UHGV virus genome: UHGV-0135983
DNA length: 35,851 nucleotides
Strand: one strand, 5' to 3'
Source: a virus
The position numbers and the translations under genes are program-made. Below, piece by piece: positions 3,322-34,397 of this stretch (positions are counted from its first letter, which is position 1; every line of letters begins with the position of its first letter). The notes below the pieces were generated by a model. It did no database searches. It was not told the DNA's origin and worked only from the letters and a program-made list of their open reading frames with translations.

Positions 3322-4932
3322 CTAATAATCTACGGCGACCATGTGATCGCCATCGTTTGGTTGCCAATGTTCCCGCGCCTGTGCGGTCGGAATCCCGACC
3401 AATTTACCTATACGTACCGGAGTTGAGCTGATAGCACCGGAGCCGGAGTCGATAAAGTCATCGGGCTGATTAGTCAGCGCCGGGTTAAAGTCTCGCATCT
3501 GGTCGTACATTGGGCCGTCGAGCACGTCGGTGTGCGCCCAAAGGAACCGCGACGACAGCGGCGCTTCGAAGGCATCGAGGATGCGTTTCTGTTTATTGGT
3601 CACGCTGAATTCTTCCCGGACGCCGCAACCTGTACCCTTCAACGCCTGAATCAGCAATTTGCCGGCGAAGCTGCCCGGGCCGTTCACCTCGACGCAAATC
3701 AGGGGGATCTGATACTTCAACACCAGCTCTTTAATCTGCATCACCTGACCGCCGGTGATTTTGTCGTTGTCGTCAAATTCTGCCAGTTCGCCCGTAAGCC
3801 CCTGGCAAACATGCCAGTACAGATGCCCGCGCGCGTCGGTGAAAATCAGAGAGAACGCCGAGGCGTCGGCCTTAACTTTGCCGGTGGCCACATCCCACCA
3901 GGCGACAGCACCAACAATTTGCGTCTGGCCAAGCCACATCGAACAGGAGCGGTTCGCGTATCGGATTTCAGGCTGAACGTTGTATTCTCGGATACGGTCA
4001 GGATCAAGACGAACCTCGCCAACCGGTTTACTGTGCAGCTGGTACTGACTGTCCCATTCGTTAATTGTGCGAGTCTCGCGGCGGCGCTTTGTCATTTCCT
4101 CCGGAGTGAATCTTTCCGGCCATTCACAATCGGCGTAACAGTCAACCGTGGTACCGGGAGCCTCGGCAAACTCGATACCATCATCGTTAAGACGATAATC
4201 AACACCTTCAACGAGCAGTCGCGCGCCAATGTGAATACCGACGAAAACATATTCAGGCCGGAACGGTAACGAGTAACGGCTAGCGGTAGCCTGTTTTTCC
4301 TCGATGCGAAATTCTTTGCCGAATAGTTTGATGGTCAGACAGTCGGCGCCCATAGATTCAACCTCATCGTAAAGGCTATCGTGGGTATGCGGCGTGCCGA
4401 TAAACAGCTTTCGCCCGCCGGGGACAAGAATGTGTGTCTGTTCACCCAGACGATAACGCAGCTTTTCCCGCGCCTCCGGCGTCTGGATATTCCGGGGCAC
4501 TTCTACGTCATCGTTCTGACATTCATCGGCACGGGCCGAGGTGACGTTAGAGAGGATCCCCTTTGCGTACATGCTGCCGTTACGCATATCCAGCGAGCCG
4601 TTAACCCACCATTGCTCAACGGTTCCCTGTCCGTCGGGTAGCATACCTTTGGTCAGCGGATGATTGCGTAAAACGTTCTGCGTATCGCGGCTGGTTTTGT
4701 ACGCGGTGCCGTCAGCTTCAGACTGGTGAAGAATGCGGTACTGGCGGTTCTGGTAATATCGCCATGCGTTATACACCGCCAGAATGGTGGATTTTCCGAA
4801 GCCACGGAAACAGCGAAGCACCGCGAGATCCCCGCGGTGTTCCAGCCAGTGGCAGGCTCGATAATGGCAGTCGGGAACCTCCCACCCCATCCGCTCCGCC
4901 CATATGATGAAAAAGGCGACGAATGAAATCAT
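3322..4932 (-). CDS. terminase large subunit (putative)
   Basis: 536 aa; Walker A-like RGFGKSTILA near N-terminus, acidic Walker B-like ADECQNDD; sits between a small putative TerS and the tail fiber. Confidence 0.6.
   Translation of the reverse strand: MISFVAFFIIWAERMGWEVPDCHYRACHWLEHRGDLAVLRCFRGFGKSTILAVYNAWRYYQNRQYRILHQSEADGTAYKTSRDTQNVLRNHPLTKGMLPDGQGTVEQWWVNGSLDMRNGSMYAKGILSNVTSARADECQNDDVEVPRNIQTPEAREKLRYRLGEQTHILVPGGRKLFIGTPHTHDSLYDEVESMGADCLTIKLFGKEFRIEEKQATASRYSLPFRPEYVFVGIHIGARLLVEGVDYRLNDDGIEFAEAPGTTVDCYADCEWPERFTPEEMTKRRRETRTINEWDSQYQLHSKPVGEVRLDPDRIREYNVQPEIRYANRSCSMWLGQTQIVGAVAWWDVATGKVKADASAFSLIFTDARGHLYWHVCQGLTGELAEFDDNDKITGGQVMQIKELVLKYQIPLICVEVNGPGSFAGKLLIQALKGTGCGVREEFSVTNKQKRILDAFEAPLSSRFLWAHTDVLDGPMYDQMRDFNPALTNQPDDFIDSGSGAISSTPVRIGKLVGIPTAQAREHWQPNDGDHMVAVDY
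3385..3402 (-). promoter_or_regulatory. conserved late-junction element copy 2 (GGTCGGAATCCCGACCAA), inside terminase 3' end, upstream of tail fiber
   Basis: Same invariant 11-mer; lies within the last ~27 codons of the upstream CDS, 84 nt before the fiber ATG at 3304. Confidence 0.5.
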
Positions 4933-5842: not shown

Positions 5843-8733
5843 CGCATACCGGGATCGACCTGGTTAATCAGCGGCGCAATCCAGAACAGATTATTACCGG
5901 GTAACAGCGTACGCACGTTATGCAGCACACGGTCGCCGGCGTCGCCATTCAGCACGCCGGCGGTTACATCTGTAACGGTATCCAGCAGGCCAAAGGTTGG
6001 CCCCAGAGCAGAACCGATAAAGCCGCGGCTGGCGTAACGGGACTGCGTACCGGTGCCGAGCAATGGCCCTAGCCCTACCATCCCGCCGGATGCCTTTTCA
6101 GCCATGTTGTTATATTCCATCAGTGGACCGAGGATACCAGAACGGTCGATGCCCTCGAGAACCATCTTCTGCGGGGTCAAATCAACTTCCCGGCCATTAG
6201 CCGCCTGCTTAAGCGCATAGGTCAAAGAGCCCAGGCCAATCTGGAAGGCGGTGCCGTAATAGAACTGCGCGGTACCTTCCTGCAGGCCGCCGAGCGTTGC
6301 GCGATTATAGGATGCCGTAGCAAAAGACTTAAACTGGAATACGGTTTTCCCCAGCGGGGTACTAGCCCACAGCGGCGTATCACCGATCCCCGGCGTGATA
6401 ACTGTATTGTTTACGTCTTTCAGTACCGCGGATTGCAGCAAACCGGCGGCGTACTGGTCATCCCATTTTTCGAAATTGCCGATATGCCAACCCTGAATAA
6501 CTTCGCCGTGCTTCTGAAATTCTCGCTGGATGCGTTCGGCCATCTTCTCATTGATGCCGAGTTTTGCCAGGCGCTTCGCAGGGAACGCGCCGGACAGAAT
6601 ACCGTCGGACGTGATCATGCCATTCACCGATTTGTTCATATCGTCAAAGTGGCCCATCATGGTCAACTTGCCGAACACATCGGTAATACGTTCCATGCCA
6701 GCTTCTGCAGCTGTCGTACGTGAAGAGCTATCGACCAGATCCCCCATCGTACGCGCGCGGGTATGCAGTATGGTTTCAAGTCCAACGGCCATTTTCTTCT
6801 GATCCGCCCGGCTGGCGAGGTAAGCCGGCGAGCGGGTAATCAGTGCGCCATATCCACGCATGGTATTGCTGAAGCCGTTAACCATCATGCCGCGCGCCAG
6901 ATCCGGGATAGCGGATACCGTCATGCCACCGAGTTTTGTTACAAAGTTGGCGCTACGCAGGAAAGCACCGGCGCGGACGAAAAATGATGATGGGTCATCC
7001 GGCATACCGTAGGTACCAACGAGGCGATCGCGGAGCGCCAGAATATCGCGCAGGTCGGCTTCGCGCGCCTTCGCCAGCTTTTCCTGTTCTGCCGGGCGTA
7101 AACGCATCAGCGCGTCGTATTCGTCCTGGATGGCGGCGAGCTGCGAATCCAGCGACTTATTGCCAAAGGTGCGGGTTAATTCGATTTCTGCTGAGGCTTC
7201 ACGAATATGACGCTGCAGGACGTAGTTAGCATCGCTCTCCAGATAATCTTTCATCAGGCGATCGGGAACGCTCAACGTACGCGATTTTGTGCTACCCGGC
7301 GCTTTCACCATAAAGACGTTGGCGAACTCCTGCGGAATTTTGGCCCCGACAATACGGTTGATAGTGGTATCTGCGGCAATTTCGGCATCTTCGCGGGACA
7401 TGGTTTTTTCACCGCGTGACCACCAGTCAACCAGCATGTTGCGGAATTTATCGCGCTCGCTAACGATTTTCCCTACCTTGTACACGCGTGGGAAATAGCT
7501 GGTCTGTCCCATCGCTTTCAGTTCGGCATCCGGCGGAAGTAAACCCAGTTCCTGCTGTGCCGTCTTCACACGATTGATGACCGTACGCATTGCCTGTGCC
7601 GCTTCCTGCACTTTCGCATTAACGTGCACGTCACCGTTGCGCAGCGCCTCGCCAACCTGTTCACGGAAGGCCGTATAACCCAGATCGCCGCCTTCGGCTT
7701 TGTACTGGGTGTATGCCTGCTTATTCGCAGTAACGACGGCCGCCTCTTCACGGCGCCAGCCACGTACGCGCGTCTCAGCTGCAACCGGCGTTTCAATACC
7801 GCGCAGGTTGCCTTCCAGCGTGAAGTTATTCTCTGCAAGTTCCAGCGCTGTCCGGCGCGCTTCTTTTGATGGGGATTCCATCAGGCGGGTGATCGGCGTC
7901 AGATAGCTACCGGCTTTTTTAGCCAGCTTGCCTAGTGGGCCGCCAGACACCGGTGTGAGATCATCCAGCGTAGCTTCGCGGATACGCATGGCGCCGACGC
8001 TGCCACCATTCGGTAAAGTATCCGCCAGGGCATCAGCTGCGTTGTTAATCGTTGGCGAGGCGTTCATATTATCGAGCGCCTCCGCCACTTCACGGGTGGC
8101 CGCATTTCTTACCGACGGGGTGATCATCGCGCCAGCAGTGGCAAATACACCGCTGAGAAGTGCGCCGGCAGTAATGTGTGCGGCGCTCTCCCTGGCTGTT
8201 CTGGTGTACTGCTCGTTATTGAGCGCAACCTCGCTAAGTGCGGTACCGGCAGCGCCAATAGCAACCTGAGAACCAATACGCGCAGCCAAGCTTCCCTGCG
8301 CACCAGGAATAAACATCGATGCGACCGTGACAGGGTCGATAATTCCGGCGGCGATACTAGCCAAAGTTCCTTCAGCGCCTGTTTCAGACAGCACCCGGCG
8401 GTCTTCGTTTTCATCGTCTATCTGGTTTTTAATCCAGGCGGTTTCCTCTGGGGATTTTGAATCCGCAAAGGCGGATCCCCATTGTTCGTACCCCTTTAGT
8501 TCGTTTTTATCAGAATAAGGGTTATAACCGTCCGCCGGTTCGAATTGTTTAGCCGGGCGGAACATTCCGGCCAGCAGGTTATTCTGACGAAAAGCGGCAT
8601 CCCATACAGACGGTTGCTGTTGCAGCGGTTCCGGGTTAGTTCCTTTAGGCAGAGATACATCAAAACCAGTTGGCTCCTGAAGAGCATTATCCATTACGCT
8701 TAGCGGTTCGTCAGATTGTGGGTAGAAAGGCAT
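5839..8733 (-). CDS. internal virion / ejection protein (T7 gp15/gp16-like, large)
   Basis: 964 aa, directly follows the SLT-domain protein with overlapping stop/start; position and size as in T7-type core proteins. Confidence 0.55.
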   Translation of the reverse strand: MPFYPQSDEPLSVMDNALQEPTGFDVSLPKGTNPEPLQQQPSVWDAAFRQNNLLAGMFRPAKQFEPADGYNPYSDKNELKGYEQWGSAFADSKSPEETAWIKNQIDDENEDRRVLSETGAEGTLASIAAGIIDPVTVASMFIPGAQGSLAARIGSQVAIGAAGTALSEVALNNEQYTRTARESAAHITAGALLSGVFATAGAMITPSVRNAATREVAEALDNMNASPTINNAADALADTLPNGGSVGAMRIREATLDDLTPVSGGPLGKLAKKAGSYLTPITRLMESPSKEARRTALELAENNFTLEGNLRGIETPVAAETRVRGWRREEAAVVTANKQAYTQYKAEGGDLGYTAFREQVGEALRNGDVHVNAKVQEAAQAMRTVINRVKTAQQELGLLPPDAELKAMGQTSYFPRVYKVGKIVSERDKFRNMLVDWWSRGEKTMSREDAEIAADTTINRIVGAKIPQEFANVFMVKAPGSTKSRTLSVPDRLMKDYLESDANYVLQRHIREASAEIELTRTFGNKSLDSQLAAIQDEYDALMRLRPAEQEKLAKAREADLRDILALRDRLVGTYGMPDDPSSFFVRAGAFLRSANFVTKLGGMTVSAIPDLARGMMVNGFSNTMRGYGALITRSPAYLASRADQKKMAVGLETILHTRARTMGDLVDSSSRTTAAEAGMERITDVFGKLTMMGHFDDMNKSVNGMITSDGILSGAFPAKRLAKLGINEKMAERIQREFQKHGEVIQGWHIGNFEKWDDQYAAGLLQSAVLKDVNNTVITPGIGDTPLWASTPLGKTVFQFKSFATASYNRATLGGLQEGTAQFYYGTAFQIGLGSLTYALKQAANGREVDLTPQKMVLEGIDRSGILGPLMEYNNMAEKASGGMVGLGPLLGTGTQSRYASRGFIGSALGPTFGLLDTVTDVTAGVLNGDAGDRVLHNVRTLLPGNNLFWIAPLINQVDPGMR

Positions 8734-29002: not shown

Positions 29003-29064
29003 TTCGAGCGTCTCCTGTCGCTGAAAATTGATTAAGCGTAATCAGATTTCGATAACGCCTGTAG

Positions 29065-29262: not shown

Positions 29263-29330
29263 AGTTTCCTCTCCTAACGTCAGTTAGGAACATAAATACT
29301 AACGAAAGTTATGTCAAGTTAACTTATATT
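29263..29330. promoter_or_regulatory. immunity switch region: operator palindromes and divergent promoters
   Basis: Palindromes TAACGTCAGTTA (29276..29287), TAACGAAAGTTA (29300..29311), AAGTTAACTT (29316..29325); - strand TTGACA (29312..29317) 17 nt from TATGTT (29289..29294); + strand TATATT (29325..29330) just before the repressor start. Confidence 0.6.
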
Positions 29331-29750: not shown

Positions 29751-29780
29751 GGCAATGTTTTCAATGCATTGCCTTTTTTT
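29751..29780 (+). terminator. intrinsic terminator after repressor gene
   Basis: GGCAATG...CATTGCC hairpin followed by TTTTTTT. Confidence 0.6.
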
Positions 29781-29793
29781 ACACCTCAAATAT

Positions 29794-29844
29794 TAACTTT
29801 TGTTAGTAAAAAATATTGCCAATAAAAATACCTTTGGTTATGCT
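29794..29844 (+). promoter_or_regulatory. operator-like palindrome plus sigma70-like promoter
   Basis: TAACTTTTGTTA (29794..29805) matches the TAAC-N4-GTTA pattern; TTGCCA (29816..29821), 17-nt spacer, TATGCT (29839..29844). Confidence 0.45.
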
Positions 29845-29926
29845 TCATCACATCAACGACGCACTAACCACGCGGCAGTTGTTCAGAAACGTTCCGCCGA
29901 CCCGGCGTTAAGGGGGAGGAGAAGTG

Positions 29927-30145
29927 ATGGAAAACGCTGTATTAGGTGCCGTCGGACCAACGCTGAATGTGTTGCTGGATGCACTGAAAGAAGAGAAAGG
30001 AGCCGCCAACGTCGAGGACGTCAAAGCGGTCATCCAGGTTATCAGTGAAGTTGTAGGCAAGTGCGATGGTGATCTGGCTACTGGTTACGCGGTTTGGGAT
30101 GAACTGCTGAATGCGGTGTTACGACATATTTCGACAAAGGGTTAA
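29927..30145 (+). CDS. hypothetical small acidic protein
   Basis: 72 aa; GGGGGAGGA RBS 6 nt upstream of ATG. Confidence 0.5.
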   Translation: MENAVLGAVGPTLNVLLDALKEEKGAANVEDVKAVIQVISEVVGKCDGDLATGYAVWDELLNAVLRHISTKG

Positions 30146-30320
30146 GGCTAATACCCTCTGGTGGGTATAACTCTCGATTGATTCTCACGACTGCTGACAT
30201 GAAATCTACACGGTTATCAATCGGCATCGTAGACAAAATTACTGTCAATAATACCTGGTGTGCTTTCAGCTCTTCTCTGACTGCAGCTAGCTCAGATTTA
30301 AGTTGTTCAAGTTCCGACAT
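30078..30320 (-). CDS. hypothetical small protein (antisense/convergent to 29927..30145)
   Basis: 81 aa from MSELEQLKSELAAVREEL, AAGGGA RBS; 3' end overlaps the + strand gene by 68 nt; uncertain which is expressed. Confidence 0.35.
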   Translation of the reverse strand: MSELEQLKSELAAVREELKAHQVLLTVILSTMPIDNRVDFMSAVVRINRELYPPEGISLNPLSKYVVTPHSAVHPKPRNQ

Positions 30321-30426
30321 TTGTAATCCCTTTTGCTGTTGTTGGAATGGCAAAGGTAGCACGACCGGGCGTGTTGAAAAATCCCGGAACTGAATTCTTC
30401 GGGTCGCCGACAGTACGATGACATGC

Positions 30427-30769
30427 GGGAAAGACCGCAACGAACATCCATTGCTGTGTGTAGTCTTGGCCGGGCGCCCCGGGCATTTTTTTAACACAGT
30501 AACGATTTATGCGACCCTTCAGTGAAAACTGAAGCCCTCGAAAAGAGGGACCCCGTGAGGAAAGACCAGTGAGCCTGACCAGCTCTGGCGCCGGGAAAGA
30601 CCGGGAGGAAAGACCAATGACCTACGGGCATGACCAGCCCTGACAGCCGGGAAAGACCGGCAACCTTTAGATGGCAAAAGGCCCGCACAAGGCGGGCCAG
30701 TTACCCCGAACGGTGACCAAACCATTCGGACTTATCACAAGCGACCAAGCTTGTGATGAGGAAAGACCA
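30427..30769 (+). repeat. cluster of six GGAAAGACC motifs in apparently non-coding DNA
   Basis: GAGGAAAGACCA at 30557, 30605, 30758 (each followed by GTG/ATG and a short in-frame ORF); GGGAAAGACC at 30427, 30593, 30649; 22-bp inverted repeat TCACAAGC-N6-GCTTGTGA at 30735..30756. Confidence 0.6.
30463..30490 (+). terminator. putative intrinsic terminator
   Basis: GC-rich hairpin CCGGGCGCCCCGGG followed by T7 run. Confidence 0.5.
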
Positions 30770-30824
30770 ATGCCGACAGAGTCAACACTGATCGGCTCTG
30801 AGTATACATCAACAAGGAGTCGCT

Positions 30825-31148
30825 ATGGAAGCGCTTACCATCCCCGTGAAGCTGTACATTCACTACATCACCAACACTTTCTCATCCGATAAATATCACG
30901 TTTCAATCTGTGACATGTCACGGAACCACCCGGACATTTATGTGCTGCTGGAAACGCGTGATATCACCATCGATATAAACCAGCCGGAACCCTTCGACCT
31001 TATAGCCTTGCAGGTTGACCAGCTGCGCAGCCAGAAAGAAAACCTTGCTGCCGACGCTCAACGCCAGATCGCCGCGGTCGATGACAAAATTCAGCAGCTG
31101 CTTTGCATCGATCATTCTCAGATTGAAGAAAGTGATATTCCCTTCTGA
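30825..31148 (+). CDS. hypothetical protein (first gene of recombination operon)
   Basis: 107 aa; AAGGAG RBS 6 nt upstream. Confidence 0.5.
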   Translation: MEALTIPVKLYIHYITNTFSSDKYHVSICDMSRNHPDIYVLLETRDITIDINQPEPFDLIALQVDQLRSQKENLAADAQRQIAAVDDKIQQLLCIDHSQIEESDIPF

Positions 31149-31430: not shown

Positions 31431-33650
31431 ATGACCATCTACAACGGCTTATTTGAGCCAAAGAAATCGGCGATTAAAGACTGCGGCGCCGTGCAGCTGG
31501 CGATCGCCATCGATGCGCCAAACAAAAAAGTGGCCGAAAGCATTATGACCGGCAAACTCTGGGAATCATACCCGGCCAATGGTGACAACTATTTCAAACC
31601 GAAACTGTGGGAACACGTTGAAGGCCAGCCGCTGCCGACCGTTGGCCAGTTCGATGAGTCATTCGCCCAGCAGCATACTTTTGACGGTGAAAAATGGGTT
31701 TCTACTGCGCAGGATAGCGCTTCCGGAAGCAGTGCAGGTTTACCTGCCGACGATGAAGTGATCGACCTGATGACCGTTTCCGCAGAGGAACGCTTTGCTG
31801 CCGTCCTGCTTTTTAGCACCGCTGCGATTGATGGCCATCTTTATTCTCAGGTTGTGGATTATCTGGATAACCTGAAAAACCACGATGGCGAATTTGAAGA
31901 GGAAGATCGCTTTAACTTTAATGTGCTGTGCGCCCTACAAAATAACTTCCCGGTTCAAAGCATGCATGTGGAAGGTCTGAATAACCTTGTTCAGGGGATT
32001 TTCTCCCACTTTGAAAACCAGACGCCAGGCAAAGCGGCTATCTCTCAGTTCGTTAAACGCTGGCTTGAGAATCCGGGCAAGCGCGACGAACTGGCCCCCG
32101 GCGTATATAAAAATACCGCTCTCAGCACCAGCACCAGCACCAGCACCGATGATAAAACACCCGTGGTAATTTCTAAGCGGGGTTATAAACACACATATGC
32201 AACGCTGGATCAGGAGATCGCTACCGCCCTTCTCCCGCTGGCGCCTGATGCGCCGGTACTATCCGGAAACCTTCTGGACGCTAAGAAGATGATTGCCGAT
32301 GACCGGGAAGATTTTAAACGCTGGTCTGCATCGCTGCACACCACTCCGCAGATACTCAAATATGACCGCGCCAGCATCTTCGGTGTAGTGCAGAACGTAC
32401 CGGCGAAAGATACCTACCATTTCCCTGACAGCCTGCGCCGCCATATCGATTCATGGCTGGAGGCCAACGGCCGCTTTGAAGAAACCGATACAGGATCCGT
32501 TAAACAGACAGAGGCAACGCAAAATATCGCCTCAAACGTGGGCGAAAAAGCGGAAGTGCCGCAGACGGTTGTAACCGATAACCAAGCGAAACAGGCGCGT
32601 GAGGCGCTCAACGATATGGGCTATGGCGTATATGCATCTGGTGAAGGTGCGGAACCGGAAGATAAGTTAAGCGTTAAGGCTGAGAAAATAGCAGATGAAG
32701 CTGCTCGTTTGTCTCGTGATATTAACCTCAAAGATCGCATGCCAGATGCCGGAGATTTGATTCCAGCAATTCAACCAAATGAAAATATAGCCTCAAAAAA
32801 AATTGAATCATATCTATCTGAATTGAATGACGACCAGGCCAAAGCAAACCTTAGCGTCTGGAATCGCGTCCAGCGCACAGATCCGGCCTTCGTCGAAAAG
32901 AACAGTTTCGGCGCAGGGCTTCACTCAATCCGGGCGCAGTACATGCTGATGCGCGCAACGGAAGTTCTCGGAATGGAAGGAACCGGTTGGGGCGTTGATA
33001 TCAAAGAAGAGCGCATAGATCGAGGTGTGCCGCTTATGGAGCCAATACAGGACCAATCAGGAAAAATAATTGGCCAGAAACCGGTAAGGGACGGGGATGG
33101 CTCATTATTCTGTTTATCCGTACATACAATTCGGATTGAACTCTGGTACCTGCGAGACGGAAAGAAGGGGCGCATTCCGGCCTATGGACATACGGATTAC
33201 ATCACCAAGGGTGGTGATGGTGCATTAAAAATGGAGAAAGAAGCCGCCAAAAAATCACTGACTGACGCTACAACCAAAGCACTATCCCATCTCGGATTTG
33301 GTGCAGACGTGTACATGAACATGCATAACGACAACGAATACACTTCAAAATTGAATGAGATATTCGAAATCAAAAAAGCCAGCGAAAGCATAGAAGATAT
33401 AGTGCGACTTCGTCAGGAATTAGACGACGATCTTACCTCCGTTGCTGAAACCCTATCTACTGGCGTGACTGTTAACGAAGTTGAAAAGGTTTTTGGCACG
33501 ATAGCCCGAAAACTCGAAGTTCACCGCAAGGATGCAGAATCAAAAGGCGATACACAGCGCTCTCGGTACCTCAGTGGCCGGTTGCGCCGCCTGACTGAAA
33601 TCAAAAATGGACGTCTCGCCGAACTAAATAAATCCGAGGAGAAAGCATAA
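31431..33650 (+). CDS. Erf-family single-strand annealing protein with ~480-aa N-terminal extension
   Basis: 739 aa; C-terminal region has Erf-like blocks NSFGAGLHSIRAQYM and KALSHLGFGADVY (cf. P22 Erf NSFGKYKYR / LNGLFGIDD); start preceded by GAGGAAAGACCA; (AGCACC)x4 encodes an STSTSTST linker. Confidence 0.6.
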   Translation: MTIYNGLFEPKKSAIKDCGAVQLAIAIDAPNKKVAESIMTGKLWESYPANGDNYFKPKLWEHVEGQPLPTVGQFDESFAQQHTFDGEKWVSTAQDSASGSSAGLPADDEVIDLMTVSAEERFAAVLLFSTAAIDGHLYSQVVDYLDNLKNHDGEFEEEDRFNFNVLCALQNNFPVQSMHVEGLNNLVQGIFSHFENQTPGKAAISQFVKRWLENPGKRDELAPGVYKNTALSTSTSTSTDDKTPVVISKRGYKHTYATLDQEIATALLPLAPDAPVLSGNLLDAKKMIADDREDFKRWSASLHTTPQILKYDRASIFGVVQNVPAKDTYHFPDSLRRHIDSWLEANGRFEETDTGSVKQTEATQNIASNVGEKAEVPQTVVTDNQAKQAREALNDMGYGVYASGEGAEPEDKLSVKAEKIADEAARLSRDINLKDRMPDAGDLIPAIQPNENIASKKIESYLSELNDDQAKANLSVWNRVQRTDPAFVEKNSFGAGLHSIRAQYMLMRATEVLGMEGTGWGVDIKEERIDRGVPLMEPIQDQSGKIIGQKPVRDGDGSLFCLSVHTIRIELWYLRDGKKGRIPAYGHTDYITKGGDGALKMEKEAAKKSLTDATTKALSHLGFGADVYMNMHNDNEYTSKLNEIFEIKKASESIEDIVRLRQELDDDLTSVAETLSTGVTVNEVEKVFGTIARKLEVHRKDAESKGDTQRSRYLSGRLRRLTEIKNGRLAELNKSEEKA

Positions 33651-34211: not shown

Positions 34212-34397
34212 ATGCTCAAAATCACCCTGAAGCGAGGGGATGCCATTCACGTTATTTTTCCTGATGGCACCAAAGGTAAGATCGAAGCCTGCGCACGTTG
34301 CGAGTTTGACTTTAATTTTCCCTATAGCGTGAAAATCACCAGAGAAAATGGCGCGCTACGGAATAAACCAAACCTGATTAAGCCTAATCAGAAATAA
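34212..34397 (+). CDS. hypothetical small protein
   Basis: 61 aa from MLKITLKRGD. Confidence 0.4.
   Translation: MLKITLKRGDAIHVIFPDGTKGKIEACARCEFDFNFPYSVKITRENGALRNKPNLIKPNQK

Follow-up and report, generated by a model that had tools for sequence, protein, structure and literature searches.

Convergent and antisense controls in temperate phages give mutually exclusive lytic and lysogenic expression. In phage lambda the OOP RNA opposes the 3' end of cII, and in phages 186 and P2 the promoters pR and pL face each other, so that convergent transcripts overlap or collide. In the Rac prophage of Escherichia coli K-12, the order of genes is racR, ydaG, ydaF, the convergent gene sieB (4-nt overlap), the noncoding RNA (ncRNA) KilS, kilR, and recE. 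Here we describe a related locus in the 35,851-nt virus genome UHGV-0135983 (the window, i.e., the whole stretch of DNA that was analyzed), a Rac-like prophage, probably from Klebsiella. Behind its repressor gene and a PL-like (early-left) promoter lie two small open reading frames (ORFs) on opposite strands, ORF72 (plus) and ORF80 (minus), which overlap at their 3' ends. An earlier note, made from the sequence alone, had proposed that they form a sense/antisense regulatory pair or a toxin-antitoxin (TA)-like unit expressed in the lysogen. We found that both ORFs are protein-coding genes and that they occupy a cargo slot behind PL in which the convergent layout recurs. With a probability of roughly 0.55, they would constitute a lysogen-versus-lytic pair of mutually exclusive genes, ORF80 acting in lysogeny and ORF72 in lytic growth.

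Two overlapping genes under purifying selection

The layout given in the earlier note was borne out: an acidic 72-residue plus-strand ORF (pI 4.5, net charge -5.4), with a strong ribosome-binding site (RBS) and preceded by a promoter and an operator-like site, overlaps by 68 nt a minus-strand ORF of 81 codons (80 amino acids plus stop) that also has an RBS (Table 1). We compared the pair across 15 loci, representing about 8 distinct alleles from Klebsiella, Salmonella, E. coli, and metagenomes. Both frames were open and convergent in 15 of 15 loci, with overlaps of 68, 74, or 50 nt, and the Shine-Dalgarno (SD) sequences of both were conserved. Homologs of both were called independently in Klebsiella, Salmonella, and E. 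coli. The ratio of nonsynonymous to synonymous differences (pN/pS), estimated from pooled Nei-Gojobori counts for the parts outside the overlap, was 0.40 for ORF72 and 0.24 for ORF80, and all alleles were free of stops. The five other frames of the same blocks showed pN/pS values of 0.55 to 2.0 and 4 to 32 stops; the frame opposite ORF80, which shares its third codon positions, showed a value of 0.33, with stops. Between the window and E. coli SE11, both ORFs stay open despite saturated synonymous divergence. Conservation and codon-substitution analysis in relatives, a check suggested in the earlier note, thus came out positive for both ORFs, which are real, conserved protein-coding genes under purifying selection. 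Within the overlap both genes drift (dN/dS ratio of about 0.3 to 1.1), and the overlap encodes C-terminal tails of both proteins for which the predicted local distance difference test score (pLDDT) is low.

A database search recovered ORF72 homologs in Klebsiella oxytoca (100% identity), K. quasipneumoniae (69%), and Salmonella (52%). AlphaFold2 predicted three helices for ORF72 in a weak model (pLDDT 63, with residues 70 to 72 below 50), and a helical hairpin for ORF80 (pLDDT 76) with a disordered C-terminal tail (residues 67 to 80 below 50). Of the two proteins, ORF80 alone matched a family in PHROGs, namely, phrog_20080, a phage family with no assigned function (E = 6.7e-11; residues 1 to 55 against positions 1 to 56 of a 75-position profile). 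Relatives of ORF80 showed 66 to 70% identity and the E. coli versions 38 to 39%; a scan of GTDB representative genomes with an ORF80 profile returned no relatives. In E. coli SE11 and in Salmonella and Klebsiella records, RefSeq annotates the plus-strand ORF but not its partner. The ORF80 homolog is unannotated in SE11 (Table 1) and likewise uncalled in the Salmonella and Klebsiella NCBI records (L006 to L009), so the ORF80 family is largely unannotated.

The grand average of hydropathy (GRAVY) values of the two proteins were 0.29 and -0.18, and no transmembrane segment occurs in the helical bundles or hairpins predicted for them. Neither ORF72 nor ORF80 showed homology to ydaG, ydaF, or SieB, and ORF80 had no SieB match in Pfam or PHROG. 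A similarity of ORF80 to the coiled coil of ZapG (E of about 0.01, two diverged alleles) was treated as coiled-coil noise. A lambda N-type antiterminator was rejected for ORF72 because the protein is acidic; it has no Arg-rich motif.

Table 1. Features of the ORF72/ORF80 locus (window coordinates unless another sequence is named)
Feature	Position	Strand	Basis or remark
YdaT/cII-like gene	29002-28556	-	Lambda-like immunity region
P22-Cro/YdaS-like gene	29262-29065	-	Lambda-like immunity region
Helix-turn-helix (HTH) repressor gene, 137 aa	29331-29744	+	
Hairpin GGCAATG/CATTGCC, T-runs on both strands	29751-29780	both	Read directly from the sequence
Operator-like palindrome TAACTTTTGTTA (OL-like)	29794-29805	+	TAAC-N4-GTTA consensus
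PL-like early-left promoter TTGCCA-17-TATGCT	29816-29844	+	Promoter scan
Conserved PL leader CATCAACGACGCACTAACCACGCGGCAGTTGTTCAGAAACGTTC	29851-29894	+	Alignment across loci
Two-gene cassette, 497 nt	29895-30391		
ORF72 SD GGGGGAGGAG	29912-29921	+	
ORF72, 72 aa	ATG 29927 to stop 30145	+	First cistron of the PL transcript
Antiparallel 3'-end overlap, 68 nt	30078-30145	both	
ORF80, 80 aa + stop	ATG 30320 to stop 30078	-	
ORF80 SD AAGGGA	30332-30327	-	6 nt before ATG
Conserved ORF80 upstream region	30321-30391	-	SD, CA-rich 5' untranslated region (5'UTR), candidate -10, inverted repeat
Candidate extended -10 TGcTACCTT	30361-30353	-	About 25 nt before the CA-rich leader and SD
Inverted repeat CCGGG-N13-CCCGG	30365-30387		Over the -35 region
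KilS/RprA-like module, 3' half of the interrupted PL-initiated RNA	30392-30494	+	
Seed ATTGCTGTGTGTAGTCTTGGCC	30450-30471	+	Directly before the terminator
Intrinsic terminator (hairpin 30470-30482 + T7)	30470-30491	+	325 nt past the ORF72 stop
Terminator-like hairpin upstream of ORF80	30549-30535	-	Terminator scan
Terminator-like hairpin GGCCCGC...GCGGGCC+TTTT	~30709-30685	-	Read from the sequence
Unannotated ORF80 homolog of SE11	L002 4095-4328 = NC_011415.1 about 2303112-2303345	-	

A cargo slot behind PL

In place of the 497 nt of the window cassette, the near-isogenic prophages L114, L035, and L101 have about 23 to 25 nt. They align with the window up to position 29894 and again from 30392-30394 onward, at 78 to 99% identity, with values of 91 to 99% for the flanks; L114 has the operator type of the window, and the flanks of L035 and L101 are nearly identical to those of L114. 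Because these flanks align around a gap of about 25 nt, ORF72 and ORF80 form a discrete cassette inserted in the PL-initiated RNA gene, and they show the presence/absence polymorphism between conserved flanks that characterizes morons and other accessory cassettes. The slot is the interval from the leader ACGCGGCAGTTGTTCAG to the seed TTGCTGTGTGTAGTCTT of a downstream RNA module. Across 33 loci, the leader-to-seed spacing took discrete values, which identifies this interval as a cargo slot: 108 to 110 nt for the empty slot (13 loci), 581 to 582 nt for the ORF72/ORF80 cassette, 738 nt for another cassette (type C), 893 nt for the SE11 allele with a second insert, and 360, 430, and 441 nt for other inserts. 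In the cassette-free prophages the slot holds about 25 nt, so the PL transcript runs straight into a contiguous RNA of about 170 nt that ends in the seed-and-terminator module. As read from the sequence, the window cassette splits a putative PL-initiated small-RNA (sRNA) gene with a KilS/RprA-like 3' end.

Other occupants of the slot share the layout. Type B (L136 of Rosenbergiella, 7527-7866; L139, 5137-5485) pairs a plus-strand gene of 58 to 61 aa with a minus-strand gene of 82 aa over an 86-nt overlap. Its plus-strand gene is unrelated to ORF72, and the 82-aa gene has weak profile similarity to the ORF80 core (P = 5e-4); between L136 and L139, pN/pS was 0.23 for the minus-strand gene and 0.53 for the plus-strand gene. 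In type C (L036), a 105-aa plus-strand gene and a 78-aa minus-strand gene overlap by 36 nt, and the latter has its own extended -10, TGgTATACT. In L027 a single 48-aa plus-strand gene takes the place of a pair. The convergent, 3'-overlapping pair therefore recurs in the same slot in at least three cassette types, the plus-strand genes of which are unrelated. Pfam, NCBIfam, and PADLOC returned nothing significant for the partner genes of the other cassette types; PHROG matches to unnamed families were obtained for the type C plus-strand gene and ydaG, and a UBA-like match was obtained for Rac YdaG.

A second insertion point was seen just upstream of the seed (L002, about 4440-4730; L050; L027). 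It holds an element of about 290 nt with a GGCGGAGTGCGCTCC hairpin similar to that of KilS and a T-arm resembling that of a tRNA, GGTTCGATTCCGG; no tRNA was called by ARAGORN in this tRNA-like insertion in SE11, L027, or L050.

Expression signals of the two genes

In an alignment of the sequences upstream of ORF72 across loci, the -35, the -10, and the operators vary with the immunity type of the neighboring repressor. The leader CATCAACGACGCACTAACCACGCGGCAGTTGTTCAGAAAC, which starts about 7 nt past the -10, is constant in all loci aligned, and the ORF72 initiation region is constant across immunity types. The PL leader is common to all immunity types and also to prophages without the cassette. 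Because the promoter and operators are immunity specific and the leader is constant, we identify the upstream promoter as the early-left (PL-like) promoter and ORF72 as its first cistron. The window contains three TAAC-N4-GTTA sites, against 0.31 expected by chance; besides the OL-like site, there is one at 29275 and one at 29300, both in the interval that separates the cro-like gene from the repressor gene. The translation initiation region of ORF72 is homologous to that of Rac ydaG (GTTCCGCCACCCGGCGTTAAGGGGAGAG...ATG).

Since this operator-bearing, immunity-specific promoter is the sole recognizable promoter of ORF72, the gene should be repressed in the lysogen; it should thus be silent there and be expressed at once on induction or infection. 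A terminator scan detected no terminator from ORF72 to 30470, so the ORF72 transcript must span all of ORF80 in antisense orientation and end at the KilS/RprA-like terminator. The earlier note had placed an intrinsic terminator about 320 nt downstream; it is present, but it is the 3' end of the interrupted KilS/RprA-like module rather than a generic terminator.

ORF80 is probably read from its own promoter, for which TGcTACCTT is the candidate extended -10. The 70 nt upstream of ORF80 that carry this element are nearly invariant between the window and SE11 alleles, the coding parts of which are saturated, and we infer the promoter from this conservation. The extended -10 reads TGcTATCTT in L010 and L136, with a -10 (TATCTT) nearer the consensus. 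In L136 and L139, the same upstream sequence stands before the 82-aa minus-strand gene rather than before ORF80; a search for the region with a DNA pattern hit one locus, in Rosenbergiella. The two minus-strand hairpins upstream of ORF80 (Table 1) would insulate its promoter from upstream transcription. Downstream of ORF80, no terminator was found before the hairpin behind the repressor gene, so the ORF80 transcript would cross ORF72 and PL in antisense orientation. That hairpin, which the terminator scan left unflagged (9-nt loop), would terminate the repressor gene on the plus strand and would be the first terminator-like signal for the minus-strand ORF80 transcript.

Proposed mode of action and alternative explanations

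In the lysogen, PL would be repressed and ORF80 would be expressed from its conserved extended -10 promoter. ORF80 is most likely the lysogen-expressed gene because it has a probable promoter of its own, insulated from upstream minus-strand transcription; its transcript would run antisense over ORF72 and then PL to the hairpin behind the repressor gene. Upon induction or infection, PL firing would lead to synthesis of ORF72 and to silencing of ORF80 by collision and antisense pairing. Mutual exclusion would thus be a consequence of the convergent, 3'-overlapping layout, through transcriptional interference and full-length antisense pairing. By analogy, the logic and position of the cassette would be the same as those of sieB versus ydaG/ydaF in Rac and of sieB in lambda. 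ORF80 is most likely a lysogen accessory protein (an exclusion or host-modulating protein), and ORF72 is most likely an early lytic protein. Of the ideas in the earlier note, the sense/antisense geometry is real, conserved, and recurrent in unrelated cassettes at the same site; expression in the lysogen would apply to ORF80 but not to ORF72, whose only recognizable promoter is the repressed PL.

Several points weigh against this scheme. Judged against the consensus, the putative ORF80 promoter is weak (-35 TTTTCA, -10 TACCTT), and it fell below the threshold of the promoter scan. The reason for the conservation of the 70 nt could lie instead on the plus strand, where they are part of the PL RNA. 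Further regulators of PL or of the ORF80 promoter may exist. The overlap could simply be compaction; in both proteins, constraint is lowest in the tails encoded there. As for function, Pfam, NCBIfam, and PADLOC gave nothing significant for ORF72, ORF80, or their SE11 versions, and Foldseek searches of PDB and BFVD gave no match at E <= 0.001, the ORF72 model being too weak for such a search. An exhaustive HMMER search with an ORF72 profile returned its own cluster and repeat-protein noise, with no further relatives.

The pair might alternatively consist of a cognate effector and neutralizer (TA-like, or a defense protein with its self-immunity factor), the layout merely setting their ratio. 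In the three cassette types, every kind of minus-strand gene is paired with a plus-strand gene specific to it, a pattern that cognate partners would produce. Many phage inhibitor proteins are small and acidic, and ORF72 is both. The minus-strand gene has a positional analogue in sieB, which is annotated as an exclusion gene, and P22 has an escape function that counters its own SieB. The co-occurrence of ORF72 and ORF80 in all 15 loci fits as well, but it is uninformative because the genes are tightly linked in a 497-bp cassette. The family and defense-system searches above are as negative for this explanation as for ours, and the TA-like unit of the earlier note is not supported. The genes are convergent on opposite strands and do not form the co-directional, autoregulated bicistronic operon of a type II system, and no toxin or antitoxin domain was recognized. 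A type I system would oppose a hydrophobic toxin to a noncoding RNA; in the present pair, purifying selection acts on proteins encoded by both strands, neither of which has the hydropathy or the transmembrane segment of such a toxin. We therefore regard a cognate pair as a doubtful explanation, though one to be taken seriously.

It is unlikely that two independent accessory genes simply abut, with the overlap a packing by-product devoid of regulatory effect. The overlap is indeed confined to poorly constrained, low-pLDDT tails, its length varies (36, 50, 68, 74, and 86 nt, and 4 nt in Rac), and no special RNA structure or stability was seen. Against this, convergence recurs in every cassette type with a minus-strand gene, opposite three unrelated plus-strand genes, and it extends to the type C minus-strand gene, which differs in sequence and has its own promoter. 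Some interference is also hard to avoid, because there is no terminator between the genes and each transcript crosses the whole of its partner (that of ORF80 also crosses PL). Far less probable still is the explanation that one ORF alone is a gene, the other being a chance frame, or that the locus functions solely as a sense/antisense RNA pair. The RefSeq annotation of the plus-strand ORF alone and, for ORF72, the weak model and the lack of a family beyond its own small cluster would fit it. However, outside the overlap, pN/pS for each ORF is lowest in the frame that it uses, with all alleles free of stops, both persist across the saturated divergence from SE11, and both keep their SD sequences; a spurious ORF is essentially excluded by this frame-specific selection signal.

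A KilS/RprA-like RNA module downstream of the cassette

The module into which the PL transcript runs is more surprising than the gene pair itself, as is the cargo slot. The Rfam model of RprA (RF00034) scored 32.6 bits on 30388-30494 (+), below the gathering threshold of 70, and the 3' half alone resembles RprA; five cassette-free relatives scored 38 to 46 bits, also below 70. The seed matches the RprA consensus core at 21 of 22 positions, with 0 matches in shuffled sequences. The core ATTGCTGTGTGTAGTC, together with a terminator, occurs in both the window and K-12 KilS, and the core is also present in RprA. A scan of IMG/VR for TTGCTGTGTGTAGTCTT yielded at least 120 stretches; over 100 of these are distinct contexts, nearly all adjoining a cro or repressor gene. 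In nearly all copies inspected, a hairpin comes after the seed, with a sequence unlike that in the window, and a T-run comes next wherever the extract reaches that far. The 17-mer core ATTGCTGTGTGTAGTCTT of the module was also observed at L016 to L135, L140 2906-3003 (-), and L141 373-478.

No sigma-70 promoter proper to the RprA-like RNA was recognizable on the plus strand in 30321-30450, and a separate promoter was rejected. In folding analyses, the leader (z = +0.17) and the sRNA half (z = -0.92) were no more stable than shuffled sequences. KilS is an Hfq-associated, northern blot-verified sRNA from the kilR 5'UTR, with yncL as a partner in RIL-seq, and the paper that describes it does not mention RprA (PMC8175672). 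The last 47 nt of RprA, which include the core ATTGCTGTGTGTAGTC, are an active processed form (PMC9262595). Searches of literature text and of sequence strings found no description of an RprA-like prophage RNA, a KilS-RprA link, or the ORF72/ORF80 cassette.

One may speculate that a dedicated slot in a PL-initiated KilS/RprA-like sRNA gene repeatedly captures convergent toggles, each composed of a lysogen effector (ORF80-like) and a cognate PL-expressed canceller (ORF72-like). The 3' end of the ORF72 mRNA would then deliver an sRNA with the processed-RprA seed, and induction would feed the host Rcs/RprA regulon. We consider this extended scheme improbable as a whole.

Neighboring genes and noncoding sequences

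The Rac YdaT-box has been published as ATGATT-n6-AATCAA (PMC11879457). The sequence CTGATTACGCTTAATCAA at 29028-29045, just upstream of the YdaT-like gene, matches it with one mismatch, and the box has the same placement in Rac. This is the best match in the window; none is near ORF80, and a cII/YdaT-activated ORF80 promoter was rejected. A similar palindrome lies at 34374-34391, and matches to the box overall were not above chance. On the other side of the cassette, the early-left region encodes a 739-aa protein (31431-33650, +), the N-terminal half of which resembles the N terminus of RecE/exonuclease VIII (NCBIfam, E = 9e-14); YdfE_N was matched in its relatives. A Gp157-family gene then follows, and together these two genes confirm a Rac-like early-left recombination operon.

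From the terminator to a 107-aa gene extends a conserved, hairpin-rich untranslated stretch of about 330 nt (30495-30824, +). It contains a lambda boxB-like hairpin, CCCTC-GAAAA-GAGGG (30535-30549), which doubles as a minus-strand terminator-like site; no N-like protein was evident that could carry early-left transcription past the terminator at 30470. The sequence GGAAAGACC occurs 10 times in the window, against 0.29 expected, and is always co-oriented with early transcription (25888 and 28537 on the minus strand; 30428, 30559, 30594, 30607, 30650, 30760, 31421, and 34598 on the plus strand). It often lies within GAGGAAAGACCAATG, i.e., the RBS and start of early genes, and is conserved in related loci; five copies cluster in untranslated 30428-30660, some as loops of CCGG-GAAAGA-CCGG hairpins. 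Candidate roles are a translation initiation module, a nut-like site, or a recombination boundary.

Weak matches to isrB, an Hfq-binding island sRNA, were seen at 30676-30760 (-) in the window (16.6 bits) and at L119 783-867 (29.7 bits), against a gathering threshold of 35; with the hairpin at about 30709-30685, the former may represent a second, minus-strand sRNA. Within the 107-aa gene, a promoter-like sequence, GTGACA-18-GATATT (30892-30921, -), overlaps the palindrome CTGTGACATGTCAC, which is nucleotide invariant across diverged alleles of that gene. The palindrome may be a protein-binding site or may merely reflect conserved CDMS codons.

Significance and comparison with known systems

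The locus adds to enterobacterial prophages two real small genes that are mostly unannotated or half-annotated, and it pinpoints a cargo slot immediately behind PL in Rac-like prophages, at which a convergent overlapping pair is a recurrent cargo design. If the proposed lysogen/lytic mutual exclusion is true, the pair would be a compact, portable switch module, and the slot would be a place to seek new exclusion and anti-exclusion proteins. Through the adjacent RNA, KilS, a known but little-studied sRNA of Rac, is tied to RprA and to over 100 prophage contexts; this tie would make the function of the processed-RprA seed testable from the phage side.

With type I TA modules such as par of pAD1 and txpA/RatA, the pair shares convergent units with overlapping 3' ends on a mobile element. 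In those modules, however, a small hydrophobic toxin peptide is opposed by a noncoding RNA, whereas both strands of the cassette encode nonhydrophobic proteins under purifying selection. With the OOP RNA and the face-to-face promoters of 186 and P2, convergent transcripts likewise collide or cover the 3' end of an early gene. These controls differ from the window locus in that both partners here encode conserved proteins and in that the pair is accessory, lying outside the core switch, which is lambda-like and divergent.

The resemblance to Rac extends over the whole region: a repressor, small first cistrons in the PL direction, a 3'-overlapping convergent gene, an sRNA on the PL strand that carries the ATTGCTGTGTGTAGTC core and ends in a terminator, and a kil/rec operon, with YdaT-like, P22-Cro/YdaS-like, and RecE-N/YdfE_N-like neighbors in the window. 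Like sieB, ORF80 is convergent with the first PL cistrons and lies beside the repressor. Yet ORF80 is a predicted helical hairpin of 80 aa, whereas SieB has about 160 aa; the overlap is 68 nt in the window versus 4 nt in Rac; and the RNA body upstream of the seed is unlike that of KilS. Lambdoid morons and lysogen genes next to the repressor (rexAB of lambda, sieB of lambda and P22) are also accessory units beside the immunity region with their own expression signals; the window unit, with a putative promoter for ORF80, is similarly present or absent between near-identical prophages, and one of its genes is predicted to be expressed in the lysogen. An exclusion function would be an extension of this analogy. 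The unit thus behaves as a moron- or sieB-type accessory, but a moron is a single gene with a promoter and a terminator, whereas the window unit is a convergent gene pair set inside an sRNA gene or the PL leader, with one member under the control of PL.

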